From contig JAGWUB010000001.1 in NCBI GenBank assembly GCA_028868715.1, positions 53,480 through 117,479 of the forward strand: a DNA stretch of 64,000 nt, read 5' to 3'. The notes below the pieces were generated by a model. That model had not been told where the DNA came from. It worked only from the letters and a program-made list of their open reading frames with translations, and did no database searches. Within the stretch, counting starts at the first letter, position 1; every line of letters starts with the position of its first letter. Source of the stretch: Patescibacteria group bacterium (GTDB lineage: Bacteria; Patescibacteriota; Minisyncoccia; Phycocordibacterales; UBA9973). The position numbers and the translations under genes are program-made. Positions 14,012 to 61,959 of the stretch are shown piece by piece.

Positions 14012-14368
14012 TTACTTTTCTAGATGTTTTTTACAAGTTCTAGCCGCTGGATTGGCTTCTAGTCGGGCTGCTTCAATGTCTTTTTTACAAACTTCACACT
14101 TTCCAAAAGACTCTCTATTTATCCCCTTCAGTGCTTTCAAAATCATATTTAGTCTAGGCTCCAATGTCTTAATCATAGAACTTCGGGCCTCGAAATCCTC
14201 AAACCTATCCGCCATGTCATTTTGGTCCGACTGTGGAGAGCTAATCTCTTCTGGGGTCGCTTCCCATTCACCCGTATCAGGATCTAGTTTGCCCATATCG
14301 CGCAATTCTCCTAAAAGCATGTCGCGTTCCTTCTCTAATTTTTCTTTAATTTTTTTCTTATCTAACAT
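14012..14368 (-). CDS. DksA/TraR-family zinc-finger protein. The start is taken at an internal Met to avoid the upstream hairpin.
   Basis: CEVCKKDIEAARLEANPAARTCKKH matches a DksA/TraR-type finger with a C-x2-C ... C-x2-H variant. A coiled-coil region precedes it. Confidence 0.55.
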   Translation of the reverse strand: MLDKKKIKEKLEKERDMLLGELRDMGKLDPDTGEWEATPEEISSPQSDQNDMADRFEDFEARSSMIKTLEPRLNMILKALKGINRESFGKCEVCKKDIEAARLEANPAARTCKKHLEK

Positions 14369-14502
14369 GCCCAAATGATAACACTTTAATTTCCTATAGC
14401 AAGCCCCCACACCTTTTGTTTTTAACGAAAGGTGTAGGGGCAAGTACTATTTTTTTGTTTAATTCTGTGCTAGAATATTCGAGTGTTAATAATTTAATAT
14501 TG

Positions 14503-15685: not shown

Positions 15686-16171
15686 TTATTCAATTTTTAT
15701 CACTTTATAGTGGTGATTTTTGTTTGCATGGCAAAACTCCACTTCGTCACCGACCTCGGTGCCGAGAAGAGGCGCTACCAACGGTGCAGTATATGAGAAG
15801 GTGGGGATCTTCCCCATTTTTCTTTTTTCGAAAACAAGGAAACTACCGACCCGGAAAGCTCTTCCCCTCCCAGAGAACATCTCACGAACAGCCACAAGCC
15901 GTCCGATCTTTACGGTGCCATCGTTTGGCTCCGGATCTACGATGGTCGCCGAGTTTCGCAGGCGGATTAACTCCTTGGCCTTTTTGGCCCACATATTAAT
16001 GACCCGCTCTCCATCCATAAAGCCAGCATTCCCATATTCATCGCCACGTTCATCTTGAACGCTTTCTGCGACTTGAATCGCTGCTGTAAGCGCACGAGTG
16101 TTAGCCTCGTCAATTTCCCGCTCCAACGATTCAAGGCCGTCTTTTGTGAAATAAACTCTCATTTTCTCCAT
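15686..16171 (-). CDS. greA: Transcription elongation factor GreA.
   Basis: N-terminal coiled-coil followed by a C-terminal FKBP-like domain (...LLGTEVGDEVEF...YKVIKIE). Confidence 0.8.
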   Translation of the reverse strand: MEKMRVYFTKDGLESLEREIDEANTRALTAAIQVAESVQDERGDEYGNAGFMDGERVINMWAKKAKELIRLRNSATIVDPEPNDGTVKIGRLVAVREMFSGRGRAFRVGSFLVFEKRKMGKIPTFSYTAPLVAPLLGTEVGDEVEFCHANKNHHYKVIKIE

Positions 16172-16341
16172 CCCTCCAAGTTTTTTTATTTTTTAGAACA
16201 CAACTCCGTAATGAAGATAACATTTTTACGACATAAAGTCAAGTATCTGTCAACATGTTAAAATAGCCTCATTTATTGGTTAAAGTGATTGATATGGAGT
16301 TTGCTTGACTATAGGCATTACCTTGATACTATGAATAGTAC

Positions 16342-17004
16342 ATGGATCCTTCTAAGAAAGTATTAGTTTTGTTTTCTGGTGGTCGAGATTCTTCGTCAGT
16401 AGTTATTGAAATGGTACGTGCTGGATATTATGTGAAACTGTTTACTTATCAAGGTGGATTGCCAGAATTAGTTGGCCCACGTGGTGATTCAGCTCCCGAT
16501 ATTAGGCATATGGAATTAATGAAAGTTTTCCCAAAGAATATTGACGTGGAACGTATTATTACTGGGAATGCTTACTTATTAAGAAAATTAGCAATAGAAA
16601 AAACAAATAGTATGCATGTAGTGTATCCCATTGCCATTGCACTTGGTATACACGCAGGCGCTATTTTGTATTGTTTAGAAAATGGTATTCACGATATTGC
16701 ATGTGGATATTCTGGATATCAAGGAAAAGAAGACAGATATATTGAACAACGTGAAGACTTTTTCGATCGCATGAAAGTTTTCCTAAAAGATTATGATATT
16801 GAATATCATGCACCGATCATTAAGAAATCAAAAAATGAGGTAATGGATATATTAGAACGCTACGGAGTCAGCTCAAATTCACTTGAAAATAAAGCGATTT
16901 GGGGAGGTATTCCATTTGATATTGATAAAGCAGAGGAATATTGGGAAAAAGCGCTACCAGTGTTTAGGGAGTATATTGAGTATATGAGGCCTTCACATAA
17001 ATAA
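16342..17004 (+). CDS. PP-loop superfamily ATP pyrophosphatase (adenine-nucleotide alpha-hydrolase; QueC/ExsB-like without the zinc Cys cluster).
   Basis: SGGRDSS PP-loop motif (VLVLFSGGRDSSSVV). No C-terminal Cys cluster is present, so it is not a canonical QueC. Confidence 0.5.
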   Translation: MDPSKKVLVLFSGGRDSSSVVIEMVRAGYYVKLFTYQGGLPELVGPRGDSAPDIRHMELMKVFPKNIDVERIITGNAYLLRKLAIEKTNSMHVVYPIAIALGIHAGAILYCLENGIHDIACGYSGYQGKEDRYIEQREDFFDRMKVFLKDYDIEYHAPIIKKSKNEVMDILERYGVSSNSLENKAIWGGIPFDIDKAEEYWEKALPVFREYIEYMRPSHK

Positions 17005-17007
17005 AAT

Positions 17008-17565
17008 ATGAATTTATCTCCATATGTAAAGAAAGCATTATATTTTGCCGCTGAAAAGCATGATGGGCAATATCGTAAGGGTGGACATGTGCCATACATC
17101 GTACATCCTGTGCAGGTCGCATTTACTATATCTACATATACAAACAACGAAAATGTAATTGCCGCAGCACTCCTTCATGATGTCCTTGAGGATTGTGCTG
17201 ACGTATCCCTTGCTATACTTCAAAATGAATTTAATGATAGTACTGCTCAAATAGTTTACGAAGTAAGTCTTGTTGATAGTAAAAAATATAAAACCTGGAA
17301 AGAAAAGAAGAAAGCTTACTTAGAAAAAATAAAAAATGCGTCAAAAAACGCACTTATGATTGTTGCTGCTGATAAAATGAGCAATATGCATGGATATTTC
17401 TCAGCCTTAAGAGATAAGGGTGATTTAGTAGCCAAAGATTTTGGCGGAACAACTGATGAATATTTTTGGTATTATGTCGAAGTTGGCAAGGTACTTTTTT
17501 CAATACTTGGTGAACATCCTATTGTAAAAGACTACAATGATATATTAAAATTTTTTAGTAAATAA
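17008..17565 (+). CDS. HD-domain (p)ppGpp hydrolase-like protein (small alarmone hydrolase, Mesh1/SpoT-HD type).
   Basis: AAEKHDGQYRKGGHVPYIVHPVQVA...AAALLHDVLEDC matches the RelA/SpoT HD hydrolase core (HDGQ.R..G.PYI.HP..VA ... AALLHDV.ED). Confidence 0.7.
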   Translation: MNLSPYVKKALYFAAEKHDGQYRKGGHVPYIVHPVQVAFTISTYTNNENVIAAALLHDVLEDCADVSLAILQNEFNDSTAQIVYEVSLVDSKKYKTWKEKKKAYLEKIKNASKNALMIVAADKMSNMHGYFSALRDKGDLVAKDFGGTTDEYFWYYVEVGKVLFSILGEHPIVKDYNDILKFFSK

Positions 17566-17584
17566 ACTCTTACACTTTTTCTTT

Positions 17585-18088
17585 TTAAGAATTATATTTT
17601 CGATTATGATAACCTTCATGCAAGGTTTCATTTATTTCGTTGAAAGCTGTAGTGGTGATTTGTATTTCAAAAGGCATTTCATTTTTGTATGCAATAAATT
17701 GTAAAAGTTGTAACTTCTTACCTTCTTTAGATTCATCCGGACGTACCATTGGTTCTTTTATATAATCATGATCCAAATAGCCAGGGAAAGTTTGCCATAT
17801 TTTTTCAAGAACTTTATAAACATCGTCAACTGATTCTACTATAATACGTATACCATACACATCATCGATAGAAAAAATACTTTTTACGTTTTTTAACTGT
17901 ATTTTTTTCTGCAACGTTTCTGGGTCTTTTATACGGAAACTAACAACTTTATTTTTTACAGTTTTTTCTAAAAGTATTTTAATATCGTTCGATAGGTCTT
18001 TTATAGTACAACCTATACATTGTTCATACACAGAAACAGTCTCAGGTATTGTTTCATGTTTCTTTATTTTATTAAATGATTCTTTCAT
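17585..18088 (-). CDS. RelA/SpoT-family nucleotidyltransferase (small alarmone synthetase-like, 167 aa).
   Basis: Carries DDVYGIRIIV (the DxxGxRxx catalytic loop), EIQITTTAFNEINETLHEGYHNRKY (the ExQIRT...H..YK region, with Arg replaced by Thr), and a basic patch FRIKDPETLQKKIQLK. Confidence 0.6.
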   Translation of the reverse strand: MKESFNKIKKHETIPETVSVYEQCIGCTIKDLSNDIKILLEKTVKNKVVSFRIKDPETLQKKIQLKNVKSIFSIDDVYGIRIIVESVDDVYKVLEKIWQTFPGYLDHDYIKEPMVRPDESKEGKKLQLLQFIAYKNEMPFEIQITTTAFNEINETLHEGYHNRKYNS

Positions 18089-18243
18089 ATAATTATATTT
18101 AAGTTTATCAAAAAATTACAATAATAACTATATTCTAATTGACAAAGGTATGCTTTGCAGTATAATCGTTGTTATATAGCGTTTATTGTTGTATTCAAAA
18201 AATGGAAGTCCGAAAAGTGGTTTAATTCGTTTCGATAGAAACT

Positions 18244-19293
18244 ATGGAACAATCGCTAATTAAAAAGAATCCTCAATTTGATAACCATGAGCTAGTCTCA
18301 TTCTTTTTTGATAAAGAGACAGGTCTGCGTGGTATTATCGCCATACACTCGACTAAACTTGGCCCCGCAGTTGGGGGCACTAGATATTTTCCCTATAATT
18401 CGGATGAAGAAGCATTGGAAGATGTGCTGCGCCTTTCTCGCTCCATGTCATACAAGTGCATCTTGGCTGGAGTAAAATATGGAGGTGGAAAATGTGTGCT
18501 GATCGCTCCATCGCAAAATAAAATTAAAGCCAAAGAATATCTCGAGGCTTATGGCCGAATACTAAAAGAATATTCTACGAAATTTTTTACCGGCGAAGAT
18601 GTCGGCATGAGCCAAAACGACATAGAGATACTCGGGAAAATAACTCCAAATATTATCGGCACCAAGGCCAAAGCTGGGGACCCTTCCCCTTGGGCGGCGC
18701 TTTCCACTTACTATGCCATCCGCGGAGCGCTTAAATTTTTATACGGAGACACGTCGTTAAAAGGTAAAAAAATTATTATCAAGGGACTTGGAAAAGTTGG
18801 CATGGAGCTAGCTAGGCTCGCAAATGAAGAAGGAGCTATACTCCTCGTGTCTGATGTAGATAAAAAGCGTACTGATCAAGCGCTGAAATCTTTTAAGAAT
18901 GTATCCGTCATCGCCCCTTCTGAATTTTCTTCTCATGAGTGTGATATTTTTGCGCCTTGTGCTTTGGGTAAGGATATCACCGACTATATTGCCCAAAAAA
19001 TTGAAGTAAAAATTATCTGTGGAGCTGCCAACAATCAGCTCGTTTCCGAAAAAGAAGGCGTGACTCTCTTTAAACGGGGTGTCGTATATGTTCCAGACTA
19101 TGTAGCTAATGGCGGAGGACTAATAAATGTCGTCGCCGAACTTTCAAACGGTGGCTACAACAAAGAAAATGTTCTACAGAAATGTAAAAATATTGAGGAT
19201 GAAGTGGTCACCATCCTCAAGGAAAGCAAGGAAACAGATACCGCTCCGAGTGAAATTGCCGATAGAATTGCTAAACGTGCCCTAGAACAATAA
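18244..19293 (+). CDS. Leucine (Glu/Leu/Phe/Val-family) dehydrogenase.
   Basis: GGTRYFPY...GGGK matches the ELFV dehydrogenase signature, plus an NAD Rossmann motif GLGKVG. A near-consensus promoter TTGACA-16-TATAAT is at 18139-18168. Confidence 0.8.
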   Translation: MEQSLIKKNPQFDNHELVSFFFDKETGLRGIIAIHSTKLGPAVGGTRYFPYNSDEEALEDVLRLSRSMSYKCILAGVKYGGGKCVLIAPSQNKIKAKEYLEAYGRILKEYSTKFFTGEDVGMSQNDIEILGKITPNIIGTKAKAGDPSPWAALSTYYAIRGALKFLYGDTSLKGKKIIIKGLGKVGMELARLANEEGAILLVSDVDKKRTDQALKSFKNVSVIAPSEFSSHECDIFAPCALGKDITDYIAQKIEVKIICGAANNQLVSEKEGVTLFKRGVVYVPDYVANGGGLINVVAELSNGGYNKENVLQKCKNIEDEVVTILKESKETDTAPSEIADRIAKRALEQ

Positions 19294-19296
19294 TTT

Positions 19297-20811
19297 ATGT
19301 CCGGGAAAAGATATAAAATTAAGAATAAACATTTTATACATGAAATTGAAACCCGGAAATCTAGTTATTGGGAAAATATAAGAGATAAAAATAAACTCAA
19401 AATATTCAAAGACACGGTAGCTTCCGTGCCAGCCTACCGTTTGTTTTTAAAAAAACACTCCATTGATCCCAAAAAAATTCGCACGATAGCAGATCTAGCT
19501 CATGTGCCCGTTACAACTAAAGATTCCTATCTAAGATCTTTTTCTGTGGCTAACCTTTGTAAGAAAGGAACACTTATGCACCCCCTAGTTTTCACAGCAA
19601 CTTCTGGATCTACGGGCGAACCATACTATTTTCCTAGATTTGAAAAAATAGATAGAGAATACTCTATTTTAATTGAATACTATCTTTCCCAAAACAAAAT
19701 ATCACTGGAAGGGCCAACTCTAGTTGTCGTTTGTTTCGGTATGGGAATTTGGATTGGTGGAGTTATCACCTATCAGGCTTTCGAGGCGGCAAGTCGAGAA
19801 AGCGGATATCCAATATCAATTATCACTCCAGGAACAAACAAAGAAGAAGTTTTAAATTCTCTTGCAAAACTTGCACCAAATTTTTCACAAACTATTCTGA
19901 TTGGCTACCCACCCTTTATCAAAGACCTGATAGACGAGGCGGCAAGTAAAAAAATAAATCTTAGTAAGTTAAATATGCGTTTAATGTTTGCCGCCGAATC
20001 ATTCTCAGAAAAGTTTAGAGATTACTTGGGTAAAAAGGCAAAAATTGACAACATTTACCGTGACACATTAAATGTATATGGTAGTGCTGACATCGGTGCC
20101 ATGGCATGGGAAACAGGAGTATCAATTCTAATTAAACGGATACTTACTAAAGATAAAAAATTATATGCAGATTTTTTTCCATCGGTTTCACAAATGCCAA
20201 CAATGGCTCAATACAATCCACACTTTATAACCTTTGAGTCAGTCGATGGAAATATTATACTGTCAGCTGAAAATGCTCTGCCGCTAGTTAGATACGCTAT
20301 TGGAGATCATGGTGGAGCTATAAGTTTTAGAGAAGTAGAGAAAAAATTTAAGAAAAATGGTTATGATCTAAAAACACTTGCAAAAAAAGCTGGTATCACT
20401 TCAATCCCAGAATTACCATTCGTGTATATTTACGAGCGAAGCGATTTTTCAACAAAGTTTTATGGTGCAATTGTTTTTCCAGAATATATAAAGTCTGCAC
20501 TGGAACGAGATAAGGTTGAGAATTTAGTTACCGGAAAATTTACTATGTTCACTCGCCACGATAAAAAACATAACCAGTTTCTAGAAGTAAATGTTGAGCT
20601 CAAAAAAGGAATACATGCTGACAAAAATTTAAATAAACTAGTCCAGAATCTTGTCTTTCAAGAACTTATAGAGCGAAGTACTGAGTGTAGAAATAACGCC
20701 CAGCTTTTAGGCAAAAAAATGCTACCAAAAATTACCTTTTGGTCATATGAAGATTCTCTATATTTCAAAACTGGTATCAAGCAAAAGTGGGTGAAAAAAA
20801 CACCAAAATAG
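19297..20811 (+). CDS. PaaK/CapK/F390-synthetase-family adenylate-forming enzyme.
   Basis: VPVTTKDSYLRSF corresponds to the PaaK LPxTxKxDLR motif, and TSGSTGEPYYFP is the AMP-binding motif. Length is 504 aa. Confidence 0.65.
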   Translation: MSGKRYKIKNKHFIHEIETRKSSYWENIRDKNKLKIFKDTVASVPAYRLFLKKHSIDPKKIRTIADLAHVPVTTKDSYLRSFSVANLCKKGTLMHPLVFTATSGSTGEPYYFPRFEKIDREYSILIEYYLSQNKISLEGPTLVVVCFGMGIWIGGVITYQAFEAASRESGYPISIITPGTNKEEVLNSLAKLAPNFSQTILIGYPPFIKDLIDEAASKKINLSKLNMRLMFAAESFSEKFRDYLGKKAKIDNIYRDTLNVYGSADIGAMAWETGVSILIKRILTKDKKLYADFFPSVSQMPTMAQYNPHFITFESVDGNIILSAENALPLVRYAIGDHGGAISFREVEKKFKKNGYDLKTLAKKAGITSIPELPFVYIYERSDFSTKFYGAIVFPEYIKSALERDKVENLVTGKFTMFTRHDKKHNQFLEVNVELKKGIHADKNLNKLVQNLVFQELIERSTECRNNAQLLGKKMLPKITFWSYEDSLYFKTGIKQKWVKKTPK

Positions 20812-20854
20812 CTGTTCCTTTGTCGTTGTAAATAAGTTATACTTATAATAGTTT

Positions 20855-22039
20855 ATGAAAGAAACTGAACAATATTTACAAGAATTTTCGGATAAAAAAA
20901 TCGGGGTTAAACCTATTTTTTTTAATCTAAAAATTGCTCAAGAAAAAGAGTCACTTAGGAAACTTTTTGATTCAAGTACAATCATCCGGGTTGCTGATGA
21001 TTATCAGGAAGAATTACTAGAACTTTTTGGTATAAATCATCCGACTGAAGTCTATCAACCAGGGTTCAAAGAATCATTTGAAAAATATTACGCAGATTTA
21101 CAAAAGGAAACTCCCCTCTCCGACCACGGAGTTTGGGTTTATTTTCCATGGAATGGAGTTTTGTCACATATTTTGGAAGAAAAAGATTTTCAAATTGTCC
21201 GAACTGCCAGAAATAGAAATCTGATTGACCAAAGAGAACAAGAAAAATTTCACGACGCTACAGTAGGCATCGCTGGGCTTTCCGTCGGCTCTAGTGTGGC
21301 CTTTGCGCTTACCTTGCAAGGGGGTCCAAAGCATATTAAGCTCGCTGATATGGATCGTCTAGCACTTACTAATACAAATAGAGTGCTTATGGGAGTAGAT
21401 CATTTAGGTTCACTGAAAGTGGAGATGGCGGCACATAAAATATATGAGATAAATCCGTATGCAGAAATTGAACTTTTCCCCGAGGGATTAAACACTGAAA
21501 ATATAAGCCTTTTTTGTGAAAATTTGGATTTAGTCATTGATGAAATAGACAACCTAGCCATAAAATACCTCTTACGCACTGAAGCAAAAAAAAGGAAAAT
21601 TGCAGTGGTAATGGGTGCCGATAATGGGGACAATGCTGTCGTTGACGTGGAGCGTTATGATCTTGACCCAGATTTGCCTTTTTTCCATGGCCGACTGGGG
21701 GAAACTTCATACGATGAGCTTTCAAAGCTTGATAAGTTTGGCATAGGCAAAACTATTACCAAGCATATTGGAGCAGAAAATGTGACCATCCGAACTCAAG
21801 AATCACTATTGGAAATGGGGAAAACCATTGTCTCTTGGCCACAGCTCGGTGGGGCAGCACTCATCAATGGAGCTGCTGTCGCCTACTGTGTACGAAAAAT
21901 TTTAAACGGTCAGTCAGTAGAGGGCAACCGCGCACTCATTTCATTGGATGAAAAACTAATTCCGGAGTATACTAGTGATGAGGAAATAAAGAAGCGAAAT
22001 AATGCTTCTACCGCATTTAAAAAAATCTTTGGATTATAA
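20855..22039 (+). CDS. ThiF/MoeB/E1-like adenylyltransferase with a ~130-aa N-terminal extension.
   Basis: E1 Rossmann VGIAGLSVGSSVAFALTL...KLADMDRLALTNTNR. No rhodanese domain and no C-terminal Cys pair are evident. Confidence 0.7.
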   Translation: MKETEQYLQEFSDKKIGVKPIFFNLKIAQEKESLRKLFDSSTIIRVADDYQEELLELFGINHPTEVYQPGFKESFEKYYADLQKETPLSDHGVWVYFPWNGVLSHILEEKDFQIVRTARNRNLIDQREQEKFHDATVGIAGLSVGSSVAFALTLQGGPKHIKLADMDRLALTNTNRVLMGVDHLGSLKVEMAAHKIYEINPYAEIELFPEGLNTENISLFCENLDLVIDEIDNLAIKYLLRTEAKKRKIAVVMGADNGDNAVVDVERYDLDPDLPFFHGRLGETSYDELSKLDKFGIGKTITKHIGAENVTIRTQESLLEMGKTIVSWPQLGGAALINGAAVAYCVRKILNGQSVEGNRALISLDEKLIPEYTSDEEIKKRNNASTAFKKIFGL

Positions 22040-22040
22040 A

Positions 22041-23111
22041 ATGGAACAAGACATAAAACAGATTATACAAGATGCAATCTATGCGCCTTCTGGTGAAAAT
22101 TGCCAACCATGGAGCTTTAGGATCTCAGGAGCAACGATCAATCTTTTTAATTTACCTGAAAGAGATCAGTCGCCGTACAATCGAGGACAATATGGTTCTT
22201 ATGTAGCGCACGGGGCTGTATTGGAAAATATTAAAATATCAGCTGAGCAATTGGGATATAGAGTAGATATTAAACTTTTTCCTGAACCTAGTAACAAAAA
22301 TCACATAGCTTTGATAAGCTTAGAAAAACTATCTACTTCTATCGAAAAACCAATTCTTTATGGAGCAATAGCTAAAAGAGTAACAAATAGAAAACCTTAC
22401 GAGGATACGTTGCTCTCCCCCTTGGAATTAGACGAGCTTGTAAAAAGTATTTCAGATAATTCAGTTAAAATTTTAATTACGCAAAAGAATTCTGATAAAA
22501 AAACTTTGGCCGAAATCGGCAGTTTAAACGAAAGCATAATGATGAGTAATGAATTTTTACACGACTTTTTTTTCTCGCATGTAACTTGGACGAAAGAAAT
22601 GGACGAACAAAAAAAGATTGGTTTTTTTGTAGATACTCTAGAGCTACCACTCCCTGCCAAGAAACTCTTTAAAATAGCTAAGAATTGGAAAATAGTTAAA
22701 TTTTTAAATAAATTTGGATTTTCAAAGGAAGTAGGTAAACAAAATGCAAAAACTTATACTTCATCGTCGGGTTTTGGAATACTTTCTATAAAAGATACAT
22801 CGCCAGAGAGTTTTATAAATGCTGGCATGGCCCTTGAGCGGATTTGGCTCACGGCAACTAATCTTGGATTAAATTTCCAACCGGTCTCTGGATTATTATT
22901 TTTAGTTTATGCAGTCAAATTAGATGGAACAGCACAATTTTCAAAAAATCAAACAGACCTTATAGATAAAGGTTATGAGACAATTAAAAAAACTTTTCAG
23001 GTTGATTCTAGCGAAAATGTAGTGTTTATGTTCAGGATTGGTCATGGAAATATAAAACCCACAGCCAGATCGTCGCGATTCAATGTTGAAGACTTTATTC
23101 AGGTAGCTTAA
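22041..23111 (+). CDS. Nitroreductase-superfamily (FMN-dependent, SagB/McbC-like) oxidoreductase. Its start is coupled 1 nt after the ThiF-like stop.
   Basis: IIQDAIYAPSGENCQPWSF is the nitroreductase N-terminal signature. A second half-domain follows at ~200-356 aa. The ATG at 22041 directly follows the TAA at 22037-22039. Confidence 0.55.
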   Translation: MEQDIKQIIQDAIYAPSGENCQPWSFRISGATINLFNLPERDQSPYNRGQYGSYVAHGAVLENIKISAEQLGYRVDIKLFPEPSNKNHIALISLEKLSTSIEKPILYGAIAKRVTNRKPYEDTLLSPLELDELVKSISDNSVKILITQKNSDKKTLAEIGSLNESIMMSNEFLHDFFFSHVTWTKEMDEQKKIGFFVDTLELPLPAKKLFKIAKNWKIVKFLNKFGFSKEVGKQNAKTYTSSSGFGILSIKDTSPESFINAGMALERIWLTATNLGLNFQPVSGLLFLVYAVKLDGTAQFSKNQTDLIDKGYETIKKTFQVDSSENVVFMFRIGHGNIKPTARSSRFNVEDFIQVA

Positions 23112-45932: not shown

Positions 45933-47930
45933 ATGAGCTTCGAAAATAAAACAACTCAAAAATTAATTTCCGCTCTCTTAATTATTTTGACTCTGATACC
46001 GACTGTTTTAATCTTTGTGCCAAAACAAGTAACTGCGCAGGGGCTCCCTGTGACCGCTTTTTGCCCCACCGCAACAAACCCTCAAGCTGTGTGTGCAAGT
46101 GAGGGCACTTCGTTTTGGCATAAAATTCTAACAGGTATGGTGGTTGGTACTAGTGCTACAACTGCAACAAATACAACTAAAGAAATAGTCACTGAGGCTT
46201 TAAAAGAAATCGTCCGAGTCGCGGCGCAAAGGTTGCTCGCGCAAATGACTCAAAGTACCGTAAACTGGATAAATACTGGCTTTCACGGAGCGCCACTTTT
46301 TGTGGAAAATCCTGGATCTTTCTTTGCTGATATAGGTAAAACCGAACTAAGAGACTTCGTAAATATAGTAGGCTATGACAGTGTTAATCAGCCTTTTGGT
46401 AAAAGCTTTGCTTTAAATGCTATAAATAGTTACCGAAGCACCTTTGCCAACAATGCCCAATACTCTTTTAGTAAAGTCACAAATGATCCTGTTTTGCTCA
46501 ATCACTTGAGGACAAATTTTAGCACCGGTGGTTGGGATGCATTTTTAATAAATAGTCAATTCCCTCAAAACAATTACCTCGGGTCTCAAATGATATATAC
46601 CGATGAACTGGCTAGAAGGTTGAGTGGCACAAATCCGACTCAAACAGATATAATCAAACAAACCTTGGCTCAAGGACAAGGATTCCTATCTCCACAGAAA
46701 TGTTTGACTAACCCTGATTATAATAATCTCAATAATCAATTTCATAAACCAACTTTCAAGTGTTCACCACCGACAGAAGATTGTAGTAATGACCCCACTG
46801 GCAACTGTGTTAGTCGTGAAATTATACGATGCAAGAGGGAAGAGTCTACTTGGGATGCAACCAATTTTTGTCCAAACAACCCAGCAGACGGAACTCCCGG
46901 CTTAGTAAATACTACTCCTGGATCAGTGGTAGCTTCATCTATAATGAAAGCGGTAAATGTGCCCATCGACAAAGCAACATTGGCTGGGACAGTGGGTAAT
47001 AGTTTGACTGATGGCTTGTCCGCTATTTTTGATGCCTTACTAAATAAACTAGTCTCTTCTGGATTAAATGCAATTACAAATCCAACGCACAACACAAACA
47101 GTGCTAATAATTCTACAAACAACGTAGCTGGCACAGGCTTTGACTGGACTGGAGCGGGGCAAACAGTAGCGCTTGGCACATTTAAAACAGATGTCCAAAC
47201 AGCAATAAACAGCGCCAACCAAGAGCTTAAATTGATAGACAATACTGATACAAATACTCCTGGAATTTTACAAATATTTAACCAAATTTGGCCAAAAACC
47301 GGAGAACTAGATATGTGCTTACCGGGACCAAACATTGGATGGGAAAATAGAGTAGATACAGACATACAAAATTCAAATGCGAATCCAACAACAATAGCTC
47401 CCGTAATAACTTCATTTAAAACATGGGTAACTAATAAGATGAGGGCAGAACTTCCAGACTCAAAAAACTTTTTGAGTACGGTTAATTCTATTGCCGAAGT
47501 AAATAAACAAGCGACTGACTTAAACAATAGGGAAAGTACAATAATAAATACTTTAACAAAACTTCAATCAATACAGGATGAATTGAGTGGTATAACCACT
47601 CAGCCAGACGCAGGCTCGGGGAGCGACACAGCTTTGACAAATTTGAAGCAAAGATATGATGGAATGCTGGTAGACCTATCTAGTCCTATCACTGTAGCTG
47701 ATATGCGAAATAAATTGGCTGACGCCAAAGACAACTTAACCAACTTGGGCACGCTCATTACACAATGCACCACAGAGCGAACTGCAAAAGGCTGGGCAAA
47801 CCCCGGAGGAGCAGATAGTGTGTTTAATAATTCCAGTACCGAAAAAAATGTATTTTGTAATTCGTACCCAAGTGTGCCAGTATCTTGTGATGCAGTTTTC
47901 CAGACTAGTGCAGAAGATTACAAAAAATAA
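45933..47930 (+). CDS. Large secreted or membrane-anchored protein (665 aa), hypothetical; a T4SS-associated surface component.
   Basis: N-terminal signal/TM LISALLIILTLIPTVLIFVP. It is Cys-containing and Thr/Asn-rich. No enzymatic motif. Confidence 0.5.
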   Translation: MSFENKTTQKLISALLIILTLIPTVLIFVPKQVTAQGLPVTAFCPTATNPQAVCASEGTSFWHKILTGMVVGTSATTATNTTKEIVTEALKEIVRVAAQRLLAQMTQSTVNWINTGFHGAPLFVENPGSFFADIGKTELRDFVNIVGYDSVNQPFGKSFALNAINSYRSTFANNAQYSFSKVTNDPVLLNHLRTNFSTGGWDAFLINSQFPQNNYLGSQMIYTDELARRLSGTNPTQTDIIKQTLAQGQGFLSPQKCLTNPDYNNLNNQFHKPTFKCSPPTEDCSNDPTGNCVSREIIRCKREESTWDATNFCPNNPADGTPGLVNTTPGSVVASSIMKAVNVPIDKATLAGTVGNSLTDGLSAIFDALLNKLVSSGLNAITNPTHNTNSANNSTNNVAGTGFDWTGAGQTVALGTFKTDVQTAINSANQELKLIDNTDTNTPGILQIFNQIWPKTGELDMCLPGPNIGWENRVDTDIQNSNANPTTIAPVITSFKTWVTNKMRAELPDSKNFLSTVNSIAEVNKQATDLNNRESTIINTLTKLQSIQDELSGITTQPDAGSGSDTALTNLKQRYDGMLVDLSSPITVADMRNKLADAKDNLTNLGTLITQCTTERTAKGWANPGGADSVFNNSSTEKNVFCNSYPSVPVSCDAVFQTSAEDYKK

Positions 47931-47935
47931 TTTAA

Positions 47936-50374
47936 ATGCGAAAAATACTTAAAAAATTAATTACGGCTGGTTTCATAGCCATCATACTAGTTGGACTGTT
48001 TAGCTCGCCAGCTAAAACTCAAGCGCAGACGGGATCACCAACAAAAGGAACCTGCACTATAACAGATACTAGTGAACGCCCTCCTATTGTTTCTAATGTA
48101 CCAAATCAAACATTTGATCAATGTACTGGACTAAAACCAACAACAGGTAATGTTGCTTGGGCAGCAGATGGTGGTGGAGCAACCGTAAATGCAGCACCAG
48201 CGGGTCCGACAGGAACTTGTACTACAGTTGATACAAGAGACACTGTAGATAAAACTCAATACCCAACTGGAGCTACAACCGTAGCAAAAACTACTCAAGC
48301 AGATTGTACAAAAATGAACCAACCTGGCCTAGTGGCAACTTGGACAGCAGATGCGACTGACAGCACTAGTAATATGTTTAAGCAGTGCTCACTTGATGGA
48401 AATTTTAGTATTGATAAATGTACCGTGTATGTTCTTTATATTATTTTTTATGAATTACCTGCTTACATTTTATGGTTAACGGCCTATATATTTAACGCCT
48501 CCATACCTTTAACTATCGGCACTGTTTTGTATCATAATAATTTTTTACCGGAAGCATGGAGAATCGTACGAGACTTTTCAAACATATTCTTTATCTTGGT
48601 GTTGCTATACGTGGCAATCAAAATGATTTTAGGGTTCGGTGGAGGAGAAGTAAAGAAAATGGTTGTGAACGTCGTGATCGCTGCCCTTCTCATCAACTTC
48701 AGCATGTTTATGACTGAAGTAGTAATTGATTCTTCAAATATTTTAGCTTTAATTTTTTATAATAAAATTACTGTGAATCCTGCTCAAACCAGTACCGAGA
48801 GTGATACCCCATATTACCCAACTTTAAATAAAGACAAAACGGCTATTGAAGAAAAGGATATTGCGGGCGGGATAGTAAAAGGTTTTGATATAACCAAATT
48901 TCTTAGCCCTGATTCAGTAACTCTACAAGTGGGCGACAAGCCTGCGGGTAGCGCTATGGCCACTGCGAAAAACACAGCGACTGGTACTGTGATCGGATCA
49001 ATTTTTGGACCCCTAGGTGGAGTCGCTGGGGGAGCTATCGGTTATTTATTTTCTGCTTCGGCATCAGGGAATCAAACTGGTCTTCAAGTAGCCATAATCT
49101 TCACGGCGTGCGCTGTGTTCCTAATGGCATCTTGGGCTTTTCTAATAGCCGGATTTGCATTTTTGGGAAGATTAATTGAACTTTGGATTTTAATTATCTT
49201 TTCACCTTTTGCTTTAATGTCTTTTTCTGTACCAAGATTAAAAAGTATAAAATTTTTAGGTTGGGATGCTTGGCTAGAGCGCTTGATGCATACTGCTTTT
49301 ATGGCGCCAATTTTTATGTTTTTCTTGTTACTGATATCAAAACTGGTACAAATAGATATCTTGGGCGGACTAACAAATACAGATAAGCCACCTTCAATTG
49401 CTCATGCATTACTTATCCTTGCAATTCCAGCAATAATATATCTGACCATGCTTTACAAAGCCACTGAGTATGCCAAAAAAAATGCGGGCGAATTTGGGGC
49501 AGCGGTAGTCAAGTATGGAGAAATGGCGGCAGTGGCTGTAGGTGGGTTGGCATTGGGTGCAGCGTCTGGAGGAACATCGATGGCAGCTACGGCAACTATT
49601 GGTAGAGCTGGTGCTGCTGCTGCTAATTCAGGGTGGGCTAAAAAATGGGAATCAAAAGGGTGGGGTGGTGAATACTTTAGGAGAGCAGCTACAGCTGTTG
49701 GCTCATCAAGCTTCGATGTTCGTGGAATAAAAATAGGAGGTAAAGCTTTGGGAACAACTATAGGAGCTGGTGAAGGAAGAAAAGATGGATTTACAGAAAG
49801 AAGGAAAAAACAAGTAGAAAATAGACAAAAGAGAGCTAAGGATCTTGAGGTTGGAGAGGATGAGCCATTAAAACAAAAGTTAAATAATTCAGAAAATGAC
49901 TTACAGCAAATGATGAATAAGGTTGCAAGAGATTTTGAAATAATCGATAAAGACTTGGAAGGTCAAAGACAAAAGAAAAACGATGCTGTAGTTGGGTCAA
50001 TTGAAGAAGCGACAGCTTCGAGAGAAATTGAGAGATTAAATAATATAAAGAGAGATATAAATGATGGCAAGGCCTTTAATTATGTAGATAGTGCTGGCGG
50101 TATTCATAATGTAAGTTCTACAACTGTAATAGGGGGAGATAATAATGGAAAAACTATAAAACAAATGCAAAGAGAAGTAATTCCTGAACAAAAAAATGAT
50201 GTAACAAAAGAAAATAGAGCAAGAAAATGGACTTACGCAGATACCACGCGAAGTAAGTTTGGGCAGGCAAAAAGTTTTGTGTTCAGTGGTGGAACACATA
50301 GTTTTGCAGGAGCACATGAAGCTGCTCACGCCATAATAATGGAAGCAAAATTGCCAGACAATGTGGCAAAATAA
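47936..50374 (+). CDS. VirB6/TrbL-like polytopic membrane protein (812 aa). It has an N-terminal secreted Thr-rich domain, then ~6-8 TM helices, then a charged C-terminal region.
   Basis: Signal peptide. A hydrophobic core YVLYIIFYELPAYILWLTAYIFNASIPLTIGTVL...FFILVLLYVAIKMILGF...VVIAALLINFSMFMTEVVIDSS...IIFTACAVFLMASWAFLIAGFAFLGRLIELWILIIFSPFALM is typical of TrbL/VirB6-type channel subunits. The call rests on architecture and context only. Confidence 0.5.
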   Translation: MRKILKKLITAGFIAIILVGLFSSPAKTQAQTGSPTKGTCTITDTSERPPIVSNVPNQTFDQCTGLKPTTGNVAWAADGGGATVNAAPAGPTGTCTTVDTRDTVDKTQYPTGATTVAKTTQADCTKMNQPGLVATWTADATDSTSNMFKQCSLDGNFSIDKCTVYVLYIIFYELPAYILWLTAYIFNASIPLTIGTVLYHNNFLPEAWRIVRDFSNIFFILVLLYVAIKMILGFGGGEVKKMVVNVVIAALLINFSMFMTEVVIDSSNILALIFYNKITVNPAQTSTESDTPYYPTLNKDKTAIEEKDIAGGIVKGFDITKFLSPDSVTLQVGDKPAGSAMATAKNTATGTVIGSIFGPLGGVAGGAIGYLFSASASGNQTGLQVAIIFTACAVFLMASWAFLIAGFAFLGRLIELWILIIFSPFALMSFSVPRLKSIKFLGWDAWLERLMHTAFMAPIFMFFLLLISKLVQIDILGGLTNTDKPPSIAHALLILAIPAIIYLTMLYKATEYAKKNAGEFGAAVVKYGEMAAVAVGGLALGAASGGTSMAATATIGRAGAAAANSGWAKKWESKGWGGEYFRRAATAVGSSSFDVRGIKIGGKALGTTIGAGEGRKDGFTERRKKQVENRQKRAKDLEVGEDEPLKQKLNNSENDLQQMMNKVARDFEIIDKDLEGQRQKKNDAVVGSIEEATASREIERLNNIKRDINDGKAFNYVDSAGGIHNVSSTTVIGGDNNGKTIKQMQREVIPEQKNDVTKENRARKWTYADTTRSKFGQAKSFVFSGGTHSFAGAHEAAHAIIMEAKLPDNVAK

Positions 50375-50383
50375 AATAAATTT

Positions 50384-50878
50384 ATGACAGAAAAATTACA
50401 ACAAATAATTAAGAGAGAGGTAGCAAAGTTGCCAAAATATACCCAGGAAGCAATAACTTCCTTGGATTGGGGAAATGTTATAGAACAAATCGGTAAAAAA
50501 TATTCTTTTAATGAGAGTGAGTTAAATGATCTACATGTACAGACATTACTGGTGTTGATAGGCCTTACAGACCCTAATTTATATGCAAAAAATATAGAGA
50601 ATGAAGTAGGTACTACTAAAGATGAAGCAGAAAAAATTGCAAGTGAAGCGTTTGAAAAAATATTTGAGCCAATCAACAATATTTTAGAAGAAAAGATTAA
50701 GAAAAATATGAAAGATAAAAAAACAGATGTGGTACAAAACGTTAATTTCATTCTTTCTGGCGGAGATTATTCTGTTTTTGTAGATGATGCAAATGTGGGC
50801 TCTCTTAATAGCCAAAAAACTGATAAACTAATAGGTACTTCAAATATTTTGGAAACAAAAAAAAGGTTAATAGATTAA
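50384..50878 (+). CDS. Small soluble hypothetical protein, member 1 of a tandem paralog pair.
   Basis: Shares LP...ITSLDW...GKKY.F.E.EL..L...TLL.L.GL..P with the next ORF. Confidence 0.4.
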   Translation: MTEKLQQIIKREVAKLPKYTQEAITSLDWGNVIEQIGKKYSFNESELNDLHVQTLLVLIGLTDPNLYAKNIENEVGTTKDEAEKIASEAFEKIFEPINNILEEKIKKNMKDKKTDVVQNVNFILSGGDYSVFVDDANVGSLNSQKTDKLIGTSNILETKKRLID

Positions 50879-50888
50879 TTAAATTTAT

Positions 50889-51599
50889 ATGGAAAATAAC
50901 ACAGTAGATTTATTACAAATAAAAATAGAGAATGCTAAAAAACAATTGCCGGATGAGACTGTGAATGCGATCGCAGCGGTTGATTGGAAAGCGGCCATTC
51001 TAAGTTTGCGAGAAAAGAAAGGATACAATTTTGAACAGCTTGGAGATTTGGAACTAGAAACAGAATTACTCTTGTGCGGACTTGCCAGCCCAGCAGAATA
51101 TCCTAAAGAATTGCAAAATAGAATGAGAATTTCTAAGGCAGAAACAGATGAATTGGTAAACGACATGAATATTTTGGTTTTTAATAAAATAAAAGAAGAA
51201 ATGATTAAAAATTCAGAAAGAAGAAAAGTATTTGAAAAGAAAGCCGAACCCATTAGAGCCAACGAAGTAGTGCAGGGATCCTCTGCCGCTGGTGGGATGG
51301 AGATAAATAAAACAGAAAATACCGTCCTAAAATCAGCTGGGATAGAAGTTATCAAGCCTGAAATTACAAGTGGAGAAAAACCAGTAGAAAGCAGAGAAGC
51401 TATCTTGAAAAAAGTTGAAAATCCAGAAACCCCAAAAGCACAATCCATGTTGGCGCAAAAAATTATGAGTTCAGTGCAAACACCAATAGTAAAAACAGAG
51501 CATACCCTAGAAAATATTTCAGGCAATAAAGGAGAGGTCGTAACACCAATAAAAAATCAGCCATTAAAAGTAGATCCGTATCGAGAATTACCCGAATAA
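50889..51599 (+). CDS. Small soluble hypothetical protein, member 2 of the tandem paralog pair, with a longer C-terminal tail.
   Basis: Its N-terminal ~110 aa align by eye with 50384..50878 (LPDETVNAIAAVDWKAAILSLREKKGYNFEQLGDLELETELLLCGLASP). Confidence 0.4.
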   Translation: MENNTVDLLQIKIENAKKQLPDETVNAIAAVDWKAAILSLREKKGYNFEQLGDLELETELLLCGLASPAEYPKELQNRMRISKAETDELVNDMNILVFNKIKEEMIKNSERRKVFEKKAEPIRANEVVQGSSAAGGMEINKTENTVLKSAGIEVIKPEITSGEKPVESREAILKKVENPETPKAQSMLAQKIMSSVQTPIVKTEHTLENISGNKGEVVTPIKNQPLKVDPYRELPE

Positions 51600-51612
51600 G
51601 GTGTAAATAATT

Positions 51613-52038
51613 ATGCAGTTTAAAGTTCCACAATTTTTAGAAATAGAAGACAAAATTTTTGGCCCATTTACTTTTCGGGAGTTTGTTTACTTGGTGGGTG
51701 GGGGAGGAATGTGCTTTGTAGTCTATAAATTACTGGGGCTTGTCTGGGGAGCGATACCTATCTTGGCCATTGCTGGATTTGCCGGAATGCTTACTTTTTA
51801 CCGCCCAAACAATAAACCCTTTATAGACATGCTGGAAGCTGGTTTTAAGTATGGGTTTCAAAGTAAACTGTATATCTGGAAAAGACGTCAGATTAAAGTT
51901 GCCAAAAATAAAGCTCCAGTGGTGGTTGAGGACAAAAATATAGCCATGAGAGAAAATGTAAAGTTAAGTGGTAATAAATTGCGAGACTTAGCTTGGAGTT
52001 TAGATGTTTTGGATTTAAAAAAGGAAGGTAATAATTAG
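51613..52038 (+). CDS. PrgI/VirB3-like small two-TM membrane protein, sited directly upstream of VirB4.
   Basis: 141 aa with two adjacent TM helices FVYLVGGGGMCFVVYKLLGLVWGAIPILAIAGFAGMLTFY. The position immediately 5' of a VirB4 homolog is typical of PrgI/VirB3-family proteins. Confidence 0.45.
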   Translation: MQFKVPQFLEIEDKIFGPFTFREFVYLVGGGGMCFVVYKLLGLVWGAIPILAIAGFAGMLTFYRPNNKPFIDMLEAGFKYGFQSKLYIWKRRQIKVAKNKAPVVVEDKNIAMRENVKLSGNKLRDLAWSLDVLDLKKEGNN

Positions 52039-52106
52039 ACCTTAGGCACTAGGCTCTAGCGAGAAAGCTAAAGCCTAACGCCTAGAGCCTAGAGCCCTAG
52101 AAAAAT

Positions 52107-52748
52107 ATGGCATTAAATGCAAAAGCAACTCAAGAGTTTGTACCGATAAAGGAGGTGCGCGACGGAACCATCGTGTTAAAAGATGGTGGCCTGCGGGCTA
52201 TTGTCTTGGCTAATTCAGTCAATCTTTCTTTGAAATCTGATGATGAACAGCGAGCAACGATACTTCAATTTCAAAACTTTTTAAATACTTTAGACTTTGC
52301 TATCCAAATATCAGTGCAATCAAGAAGATTGGACATTCGTCCTTATCTTTTGCTGTTAGAAAATAGAATCAAAGTCCAAAATGAACCTCTTCTAAAAATA
52401 CAAACAAAGGAATATATAGAATTTGTCAGAAGCTTTACCGAGTCGGTAAATATAATGACCAAAACTTTTTTTATTGTGGTACCTTATACCCACACGGTAT
52501 TAAAATCAGATTCTGGGGTTTTGGGAAAACTATTCAAGAGAAGCAGTAAGGAAGAGAAAAAAATTGAAAAAGAGGAGGATTTTGAAGAAAAAAAATCCCA
52601 GCTAGAACAGAGAGTGGGGGTGATACAACAAGGCCTTAGCCGTTGTGGCATAAAATCAGCCAGATTGGGTACTGAAGAAGTAGTGGAAGTTTTTTATAAG
52701 GTTTTCAATCCCGGAGAAGTGGAAGGAAAAATTAAACTTGAACAATAA
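52107..52748 (+). CDS. VirB4/TraE-family ATPase, N-terminal domain, encoded as a separate ORF.
   Basis: ATQEFVPIKEVRDGTIVLKDGGLRAIVLANSVNLSLKSDDEQ matches the conserved N-terminus of Gram-positive-type VirB4 proteins (PrgJ/TcpF/Orf16-like). TAA at 52746-52748 is followed 2 nt later by the ATG of the next ORF. Confidence 0.6.
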   Translation: MALNAKATQEFVPIKEVRDGTIVLKDGGLRAIVLANSVNLSLKSDDEQRATILQFQNFLNTLDFAIQISVQSRRLDIRPYLLLLENRIKVQNEPLLKIQTKEYIEFVRSFTESVNIMTKTFFIVVPYTHTVLKSDSGVLGKLFKRSSKEEKKIEKEEDFEEKKSQLEQRVGVIQQGLSRCGIKSARLGTEEVVEVFYKVFNPGEVEGKIKLEQ

Positions 52749-52750
52749 TT

Positions 52751-54625: not shown

Positions 54626-54679
54626 GGCAAGAAAGTGGGTTCTGGGCGGTAGTTATTAGAAAATGATACAATTATTGTT

Positions 54680-61745: not shown

Positions 61746-61959
61746 TTGTTGATAAGTACCGTTAATGGTGTTGGTAAAAAATGATAAGTAAGTAAAGTTT
61801 TAAATTGTTAAATAATAATTATTAATTAAAAAAAAGTTATTAGATTAAAATTAAATAATAATTAGTTAAAATAATTATATTTAATCAATTAAAATAAATT
61901 TATCCACTTATCAACACAACTAACAGTATTAGTAATTTAAATATATAAAATATAAACAT
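61746..61959. other. Candidate oriC: the dnaA-dnaN intergenic AT-rich region with DnaA boxes.
   Basis: A 214-bp spacer, very AT-rich. It contains TGTTGATAA (61747-61755, minus-strand box), TTATCCACT (61900-61908) and TTATCAACA (61908-61916). Confidence 0.7.

Follow-up and report, generated by a model that had tools for sequence, protein, structure and literature searches.

A conserved gene trio of Patescibacteria comprising a minimal alarmone synthetase, an alarmone-type hydrolase and a putative YcfA-like enzyme

Alarmone signalling is among the most studied of bacterial stress systems, and the bacteria of the candidate phyla radiation (CPR) make up a large share of bacterial diversity and have minimal genomes; in a literature whose searchable coverage is incomplete, we found no account of RelA/SpoT homologue (RSH) enzymes in Patescibacteria or the CPR. 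Some bacteria have no long RSH and assign synthesis and hydrolysis of alarmones to separate single-domain proteins, as Treponema denticola does with Tde-SAS and Tde-SAH (PMC10434055) and Corynebacterium glutamicum with RelS and RelH. In another line of work, YcfA of Erwinia amylovora activates GTP, GDP or GMP by adenylating the C6 carbonyl and then adds L-cysteine, and YcfC, a pyridoxal phosphate (PLP) lyase, resolves the cysteine adduct to give 6-thioguanine nucleotides (PMC12494993). Here we describe a locus at which genes resembling both kinds stand side by side: a small alarmone synthetase (SAS), a small alarmone hydrolase (SAH) and a PP-loop protein related to YcfA, encoded at positions 16342–18088 of a 64,000-nucleotide stretch of a Patescibacteria genome (GenBank assembly GCA_028868715.1, contig JAGWUB010000001.1, positions 53,480–117,479), the whole of which we call the window.

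This trio is a conserved chromosomal module, confined to Patescibacteria, whose genes are inherited and move together. We suspect, with a probability of roughly 45%, that it serves a guanine-derived, 3'-pyrophosphorylated signal and that the YcfA-like enzyme is metabolically coupled to that signal through C6 of the base. To judge from the comparisons below, the synthetase and the hydrolase are of known kinds; what is new is an isolated, minimal SAS subfamily with a noncanonical acceptor site.

Three genes and their predicted products

The locus belongs to a metagenome-assembled genome and lies in ordinary chromosome, with housekeeping genes on both flanks. All three open reading frames (ORFs) exist where the preliminary description, made from the bare sequence, had placed them. 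The YcfA-like gene (16342–17004, + strand) encodes a 220-residue PP-loop protein of the AANH type with the PP-loop SGGRDSS and is annotated as QueC. Three nucleotides separate its stop codon from the start of the SAH gene (17008–17565, +; 185 amino acids), which the SAS gene (17585–18088, −; 167 amino acids) meets tail to tail across a 19-nucleotide spacer between the stop codons (17566–17584); a sequence scan of this spacer found no terminator-like hairpin. One promoter-like site, TTGACT-16-TACTAT with an extended TG (9/12), lies 5' of the YcfA-like/SAH bicistron at 16305–16332 (+), and another, TTGTAA-18-TATAAT (10/12), lies directly 5' of the SAS start at 18092–18121 (−). The layout is consistent with transcription of the SAS gene apart from the bicistron, the promoter-like sites being consensus matches only, and the SAH is predicted to be translationally coupled to the YcfA-like gene in front of it. 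Elsewhere in the window there is no additional RSH or YcfA-like copy.

The QueC annotation of the PP-loop protein (7-cyano-7-deazaguanine synthase at NCBI) does not hold. Its match to Pfam QueC (PF06508) is weak (30.3 bits); against the QueC equivalog TIGR00364 it scores 26 bits, where the cut-off is 150.3; and it lacks the zinc-binding cysteine cluster, having two cysteines only (C111 and C121) and no CxxCxxC. In searches of the PDB, a profile of its family picks out YcfA (9kq6, Erwinia amylovora) with an E value of 7.7e-17 across residues 5–190, whereas true QueC structures are matched at E 0.09–0.55. Structure comparison gives the same order: the AlphaFold2 model (mean predicted local distance difference test, pLDDT, 90.5) aligns in Foldseek with YcfA at a template modelling (TM) score of 0.83, with a root-mean-square deviation of 2.2–2.5 Å and 24% identity, while QueC reaches TM 0.55–0.59 and Cap9 0.51. 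We therefore rejected the QueC identity.

The resemblance to YcfA extends to the active site. In YcfA, D19, Q129 and E183 act on the ATP transition state, F132 stacks on the guanine, E134 is the general base acting on it, Q135 brings ATP and guanine into line, and the cysteine is positioned by R18 and Y128 (PMC12494993). The equivalents of R18, D19, Y128 and Q129 are R15 (sometimes lysine), D16, Y126 and Q127, those of F132, E134, Q135 and E183 are Y133, E135, Q136 and E182, and all eight are invariant or at least 90% conserved among 34 homologues. The remaining pair differs: K169 and K180, which in YcfA grip the 5'-triphosphate of GTP from a neighbouring subunit and control assembly of the 14-mer (PMC12494993), correspond to a variable M167 and a conserved N179; neither lysine is conserved in the family, which fits a guanine substrate phosphorylated differently from GTP. 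On sequence and model together, we predict that the protein is YcfA-like and adenylates a guanine-type nucleotide at its C6 carbonyl. A 2026 survey of PF06508 mentions neither YcfA, nor RSH enzymes, nor Patescibacteria.

The 185-residue protein matches Pfam HD_4 (1.6e-16, 60.9 bits, gathering cut-off 27.2), and its residues 1–136 match the long-RSH model TIGR00691 (spoT_relA). Its nearest solved relatives are 7qoe (1.8e-27, residues 8–163) and 7qoc (1.3e-23), RelH-type SAHs from Leptospira levettii and Corynebacterium glutamicum, both of which hydrolyse ppGpp and pppGpp in vitro (PMC9293644). The signature HDGQYRK, PY..HP, LHD..ED and DK..N is conserved in 13 syntenic orthologues; as first quoted, the HD motif had named this signature correctly, apart from a spacing slip of one residue (HDGQYRKGGHVPYIVHP). 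It is credible, on these grounds, that the SAH is an active alarmone-type pyrophosphohydrolase with a complete Mn2+ HD site.

The 167-residue protein matches Pfam RelA_SpoT (PF04607) at 1.2e-12 and 48.6 bits, above the gathering cut-off of 27, and also the corresponding, synthetase part of TIGR00691. It thus belongs to the RSH family rather than to some other family of nucleotidyltransferases, and the two domain matches together bear out the proposal that hydrolase and synthetase are monofunctional RSH units. Homologues of the SAS form 104 clusters at E <= 1e-30, with lengths of 127–181 residues and all labelled Patescibacteria; the first match outside them comes at only 3e-5. By this measure the SAS subfamily is discrete, isolated and Patescibacteria-specific, with little beyond the catalytic core. 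Its AlphaFold2 model (pLDDT 86) matches SYNTH domains in Foldseek at E 5e-9 and a TM score of about 0.63, the nearest folds being the SYNTH domains from the Rel proteins of S. aureus, B. subtilis and S. equisimilis, followed by RelP and RelQ; the top 50 include no toxic small alarmone synthetase (toxSAS). The suggestion that the product might be of the pppApp type finds no support here, since the SAS is less close to Tas1 or toxSASs than to true (p)ppGpp synthetases.

The two halves of the synthetase active site differ in how well they are kept. We mapped the donor site from the residues of S. aureus RelP that bind AMPCPP and Mg2+ (PMC5794853): R78, K80, S84, K88 and R91 correspond to R52, K54, T58, K62 and K66 of the SAS, and D107, R112, E174 and H190 to D76, R81, E141 and H157. 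These nine residues are invariant or nearly so across the family, which argues that the pyrophosphate-donor half of the site is intact, and the motifs singled out at the start, D76-x-x-G79-x-R81 and E141-I-Q-I-T145-T146, are present. The acceptor side is another matter. In all (p)ppGpp synthetases the tyrosine of the G-loop that stacks on guanine (RelSeq Y308, RelQ Y116, RelP Y151) has been called critical in the literature, and it has no conserved counterpart in the SAS family, in which the stretch following D-Y-I-x-x-P-K varies in length and sequence and carries no conserved aromatic residue; the G-loop is also the least confident region of the model (pLDDT 72–82). A check of the catalytic residues and the G-loop, recommended from the outset, hence gives a divided answer, with D76 and E141 conserved and the G-loop tyrosine without a conserved counterpart. 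The position equivalent to RxKD/EXDD reads L-D-H-D-Y in the window, and Met114 stands where RelSeq has K304 and where 26 of 30 family members have lysine. Taken together, the lost tyrosine and the noncanonical RxKD/EXDD position point to an unusual acceptor. The change of arginine to threonine in the ExQIRT motif, at first read as a sign of an unusual substrate, does not serve as one: EIQITT is fixed throughout the family, and the arginine is probably no determinant of substrate because it is not among the listed ligand contacts of RelSeq or RelP.

Conservation, partner replacement and the wider YcfA-like family

The module recurs in related genomes. A scan of one genome per species gave, with the window, 17 loci based on the SAS (the window and L001–L016). 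A phosphohydrolase gene adjoins the SAS gene in all 17, and 11 of these loci have a YcfA-like gene as well. Nine loci have the order YcfA-like gene, HD-type SAH gene, with the SAS gene downstream; in two (L003 and L004) a NUDIX gene occupies the SAH slot; two others (L014 and L015) have SAS and SAH only; and in four (L005, L006, L008 and L011) the SAS gene is followed by a His_Phos_1 phosphatase gene, three of these also having a gene for a thymidylate-kinase-like P-loop protein. When we started instead from the YcfA-like gene, HD_4 and RelA_SpoT genes adjoined it in three of three independent context look-ups, with different flanks in each (SecDF-CysRS-DsbB, GrpE-DnaK-DnaJ and RecG-CofD), and among 17 metagenome loci retrieved with a YcfA-like query the full order YcfA-like gene, hydrolase gene, SAS gene was present in 15, four of them with NUDIX. 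The two exceptions are a contig that ends inside the SAH gene and a locus (L070) with a truncated PP-loop ORF and no partners.

Spacing and orientation are kept as well. Across 15 loci the gap between the YcfA-like and SAH genes is −4 to +10 nucleotides in most cases, the remainder showing overlaps that arise from over-long start calls, and the gap between SAH and SAS genes is 6–75 nucleotides; pairwise identity averages 62% among the PP-loop proteins, 53% among the SAHs and 49% among the SASs. The SAS gene is convergent to the hydrolase gene in 19 of 22 non-redundant trio loci and co-directional only in L009, L051 and L062. In L002 the whole block is inverted relative to the ComM and DksA-like genes, as compared with the window. 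Since this gene order is repeated in dozens of independent Patescibacteria contigs, the arrangement is not due to chance, and the synteny supports the early surmise that the PP-loop gene is functionally linked to its two neighbours. A few copies depart from the pattern. In two Yonathbacteria loci (L007, 9073–9728, and L071, 3251–3906) the YcfA-like frame is interrupted, tblastn recovering pieces of 76 and 142 amino acids, and SAH and SAS are intact; these broken frames and the truncated ORF of L070 may be decaying copies or assembly errors.

Small RSH synthetases can also act as toxins, and one could read the trio as a toxin–antitoxin or anti-phage module in which the SAS would be a toxSAS, producing a toxic nucleotide or attaching pyrophosphate to tRNA, the hydrolase a type IV antitoxin that destroys what the SAS makes, and the YcfA-like protein a second antitoxin or an effector, after the manner of the three-gene FaRel system. 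FaRel and ATfaRel do form an SAS–SAH toxin–antitoxin pair in a three-gene operon; as is typical of conflict systems, unrelated hydrolases are swapped (see below) and the chromosomal position varies; the SAS acceptor site is atypical; and PADLOC returns a weak match to the candidate system PDC-S33 (2.6e-10). We nevertheless consider this reading quite improbable. Scans of viral contigs found no member of the SAS family, and the trio loci lie among housekeeping genes near dnaA, with no integrase, transposase or phage genes flanking them. The SAS gene is mostly convergent, with a promoter-like site of its own, and is not co-transcribed with the hydrolase gene; the module is broadly kept in genomes of about 1 Mb, and its three proteins diverge in parallel. 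FaRel2 is matched at only E 0.18, and toxSASs are missing from the 50 best fold matches, so that a pppApp-forming, Tas1-like or tRNA-targeting toxSAS identity was rejected for want of any specific similarity. An origin from a phage or mobile element was rejected likewise: the viral-contig scans turned up no SAS, and the sole YcfA-like gene in them is distant (31% identity) and stands in another context. That gene (L054, 4015–7476, from IMG/VR) has a motif nearer to that of true YcfA; by eye, its neighbours encode a 647-residue protein with a phosphoribosyltransferase-like C terminus and a uridine-kinase-like P-loop protein, and a large protein with a deaminase-like C terminus is encoded upstream.

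The partners of the synthetase are exchangeable. Among non-redundant loci the hydrolase slot holds an HD protein in 16, a Nudix protein in six and a His_Phos_1 protein in four, three unrelated folds and hence a case of non-orthologous replacement; the YcfA-like gene is missing in six of 28 non-redundant SAS loci. Against solved structures, the Nudix and His_Phos partners give generic matches only, of the NUDT7/MutT-like and PhoE/CobC-like kinds. The four His_Phos-type loci (L005, 3833–4471; L006, 1007–2309; L008, 1282–2612; L011, 8514–9775) form a sub-clade in which the phosphatase gene is co-directional with the SAS gene and, in three, the gene for the thymidylate-kinase-like (Tmk-like) protein is convergent. 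Here the His_Phos_1/Tmk-like pair replaces the SAH/YcfA-like pair, which is a second module architecture around the same synthetase. The bin containing L006 is labelled Nanoarchaeota, and its genes resemble those of the Patescibacteria His_Phos-type loci; the label is probably a binning error.

The synthetase itself varies with its company. At the RxKD/EXDD position, 23 of 24 SASs with a YcfA-like partner read L-D/E-H-D/E-Y/F, L-T/I-L-D-Y stands in those of two HD-only loci, and L-A-D/N-D-F in those of the four His_Phos loci; parallel differences by partner type occur at residue 130 (Q, K or R) and in the motif N-E-x-L/Q/H-H. One would expect such co-variation if the acceptor depends on the partner enzyme.

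Relatives of the YcfA-like protein place the pairing with a hydrolase in a wider setting. We found 120 homologues, each at least 54% identical and from Patescibacteria only, and when 1.84 billion representatives were searched exhaustively with a profile, only 318 YcfA-like relatives came back at E <= 1e-3, with all of the Patescibacteria family in a single 50% cluster. Six of ten longer YcfA-type relatives tested are fused to NUDIX domains, in both domain orders; two carry a 2-thiouracil-desulfurase-like domain and one a nucleoside deoxyribosyltransferase-like domain. Phosphohydrolases of the NUDIX and HAD kinds also stand beside the AANH enzyme in 6-thioguanine clusters, namely ycfB (NUDIX) of Erwinia and tgsC, tgsE and tgsF of Staphylococcus (PMC7994395). 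A YcfA-type enzyme and a nucleotide pyrophosphatase would thus be a recurrent functional pair, and the alternation of HD and NUDIX proteins in the Patescibacteria module fits that pairing.

These clusters suggest a different use for the module, in which the YcfA-like enzyme and the hydrolase act as YcfA/YcfB (TgsB/TgsC) do and produce a thiopurine-type antimetabolite, a 6-substituted guanine directed at a host or competitors, the SAS being an accessory that switches on or regulates the pathway. The recurrence of YcfA with NUDIX in 6-thioguanine clusters and in fusions speaks for it, as does the retention of the cysteine-positioning residues Y126 and Q127; Patescibacteria are thought to be episymbionts, moreover, a lifestyle that makes a weapon conceivable. 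Unlike the ycf and tgs clusters, however, the module has no gene for a C-S lyase, cysteine desulfurase or efflux protein in it or beside it, the hydrolase slot is filled in most loci by an HD enzyme dedicated to alarmones in type, and the universally co-conserved SAS would be left without a role. This seems to us very unlikely, more so than the toxin.

Some of the more distant relatives deserve a separate word. The 2-thiouracil-desulfurase-like (PF04463) fusions (P0232 and P0233) match under the Pfam cut-off, and in two loci (L078, 978–1475; L079, 1847–2311) the gene after the YcfA-like one resembles the same type by eye; such fusions and neighbours point to thio-base chemistry in a separate YcfA-like branch. 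On three non-Patescibacteria metagenome contigs (L072, 3962–8391; L074, 3962–8629; L076, 1059–2435), YcfA-like proteins of 30–33% identity share a conserved order in which the YcfA-like gene is followed by genes that, judged by eye, encode a membrane protein of about 395 residues, an HD-phosphohydrolase-like protein of about 440 and a methyltransferase-like protein of about 405. This set may be a separate nucleotide-modifying or conflict system.

What the module may make

Metabolic coupling of the three enzymes through a shared guanine nucleotide pool is the reading we prefer, and it can be set out in steps. With ATP as donor, the SAS, separately transcribed, would place a pyrophosphate on the 3'-OH of a guanine-type nucleotide; the SAH, or in some genomes a Nudix protein or histidine phosphatase, would take it off again. 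The YcfA-like enzyme, co-translated with the hydrolase, would activate C6 of nucleotides in that pool so that sulfur or nitrogen could be substituted there, either on GTP or GDP ahead of pyrophosphorylation or on the alarmone itself. Because C6 activation would occur in the shared pool, the signal, a precursor of it or a turnover product would be a C6-modified guanine nucleotide as opposed to plain (p)ppGpp. A narrower proposition is that the alarmone itself is modified at C6: the C6 carbonyl of GTP, GDP or (p)ppGpp would become a thio, amino or cysteine-adduct group, and an SAS acceptor pocket adapted to the modified purine would then yield a 6-substituted guanosine 3'-diphosphate, to be removed by SAH or Nudix. 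This narrower version strikes us as unlikely. The YcfA-like identity of the PP-loop gene nonetheless moves the most interesting possibility from pppApp, entertained in the preliminary description, to a C6-modified guanine alarmone. In a literature again searchable only in part, we found no link between YcfA and alarmone enzymes.

A number of observations weigh against this coupling. Neither in the window nor in about 35 other loci does a gene for a YcfC-like PLP C-S lyase lie beside the module, and we saw no other sulfur- or nitrogen-delivering partner in them. The lesser confidence of the modelled G-loop means that a substitute stacking residue could exist. The absence of the YcfA-like gene from some SAS loci indicates that the SAS does not strictly need it, and the loci retrieved with a YcfA-like query, of which 15 of 17 have the full trio, are biased toward carrying that gene. 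For the SAS residues that vary with partner type, the pattern is uncorrected for phylogeny and may be a clade effect. The activities ascribed here to the trio are predictions from sequence and structure models. Finally, plain (p)ppGpp is fully possible as the product, given that the SAH resembles an ordinary hydrolase and the SAS fold lies nearest to ordinary synthetases.

That last point leads to another account, an ordinary stringent response split between two proteins, in which the alarmone is plain (p)ppGpp or pGpp and the YcfA-like protein is an enzyme of purine conversion or salvage that is co-regulated with the alarmone, or regulated by it, and has no metabolite in common with it apart from the GTP pool. 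The SAH is nearest to (p)ppGpp-hydrolysing enzymes of the RelH type, the SAS comes closest in fold to Rel, RelP and RelQ, Treponema denticola offers the precedent of a bacterium with an SAS and an SAH only, six SAS loci have no YcfA-like gene, and DksA/TraR-type and GreA-like factors are encoded just upstream in the window. Such an account does not readily explain why the tight coupling of YcfA-like and SAH genes, by overlap or a gap of 10 nucleotides or less, has been kept through roughly 40–60% protein divergence, or why, among YcfA-like proteins at least 54% identical, RSH neighbours are missing only at the decayed L070; nor does the absence of the conserved guanine-stacking tyrosine from the SAS sit easily with it. 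We regard it as somewhat unlikely, and as the most serious competitor to the metabolic coupling proposed here.

The module suggests that the bacteria carrying it rely on a synthetase of about 155 residues and a separate hydrolase, and both alarmone genes are tied genetically to a family whose only characterised member chemically alters the guanine base of GTP. A metabolic coupling, if that is what it is, predicts base-modified second messengers as a new class and, for thioamidation enzymes of the YcfA type, another biological role besides the known one; and a C6-modified alarmone, if real, would be the first natural alarmone to differ in the chemistry of its nucleobase, beyond the number of its phosphates or the choice between adenine and guanine. 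Even without metabolic coupling, a new SAS subfamily is defined and a widespread mis-annotation as "QueC" is corrected. The three proteins are small and appear soluble, so that the prediction is open to direct testing in vitro.

Surroundings of the locus and comparison with described systems

The genes around the trio are of several kinds. Two proteins of types that act in the secondary channel of RNA polymerase are encoded 0.2–2 kb upstream of the module, a C4 zinc-finger protein of the DksA/TraR kind (14012–14443, −) and a divergent factor resembling GreA (15686–16171, −); a DksA-like gene lies within 4 kb of the trio in the window and L002 only, not in the other loci. On the other side, divergent from the SAS gene, four co-directional genes (18244–23111, +) resemble a small biosynthetic cluster and encode a Glu/Leu/Phe/Val-type dehydrogenase, a PaaK-like adenylating enzyme, a ThiF/E1-like protein and a nitroreductase. 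The top NCBIfam match of the dehydrogenase is the tryptophan dehydrogenase ScyB (6e-88), yet this is under the cut-off of the model. The ThiF/E1-like ORF corresponds to the N-terminal half of the 'Rv1355c family' model (1e-92) and the nitroreductase ORF, which it overlaps by 38 nucleotides, to the C-terminal half (2.7e-55), so that the two are a split Rv1355c. A functional tie of the trio to this cluster, to MetK or to GreA was rejected, the synteny being missing in other loci. Farther away, a type IV secretion-like cluster (45933–56825, +) includes a TraG/VirB4-type P-loop ATPase (52751–54625), a type IV secretion pilin-like protein (55653–56825) and two ORFs of 665 and 812 amino acids (45933–47930 and 47936–50374) with no Pfam match, and dnaA and dnaN lie at 60390–63057 (+), so that the end of the window adjoins the probable replication origin.

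Set beside described systems, the trio shares something with each and coincides with none. With QueC, QatC and Cap9 the PP-loop protein has in common the Rossmann-like PP-loop fold and a weak PF06508 match, but it fails the NCBIfam cut-off for QueC, lacks the zinc cysteine cluster and reaches a TM score of only 0.51–0.59. With RelQ, RelP and the SYNTH domain of long Rel proteins the SAS shares the catalytic fold, the ATP-binding sandwich of two arginines around adenine, the phosphate-binding lysines, the Mg2+-binding Asp and Glu and the ribose-binding histidine, and its Pro113 stands at the position that rigidifies the G-loop of RelP. Sequence similarity, however, reaches only E of about 1e-3; the SAS has no N-terminal helix region for tetramerisation or allostery, its G-loop is variable with no conserved tyrosine, and it has EIQITT in place of EIQIRT and L-D-H-D-Y in place of RxKD/EXDD. 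The division of labour is that of Tde-SAS/Tde-SAH and RelS/RelH, whereas here SAS and SAH genes are adjacent and tied to a third enzyme, and the SAS has about 155 residues as against 210–410 and is without the G-loop tyrosine and RxKD/EXDD.

The FaRel–ATfaRel(SAH)–AT2faRel system (PMC7229694) likewise sets a small RSH synthetase beside an SAH in a group of three genes, and in both the hydrolase could neutralise the product. The present trio is mostly convergent, however, has its SAS gene transcribed separately by prediction, has no mobile or phage context, and includes as its third gene one for an enzyme of a nucleotide-modifying family; and its SAS is not nearest to toxSAS structures. The closest counterpart of the PP-loop protein is YcfA of Erwinia amylovora (PDB 9KQ6, 9KQ7, 9KQ9 and 9KQD), which it resembles in fold, size, PP-loop and catalytic and guanine-contacting residues, and which also has a nucleotide phosphohydrolase as a partner (YcfB, a NUDIX protein). 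The Patescibacteria protein is about 24% identical to YcfA, has K169 and K180 replaced and has no YcfC-like lyase nearby; its partners are RSH enzymes, and its family is confined to Patescibacteria.

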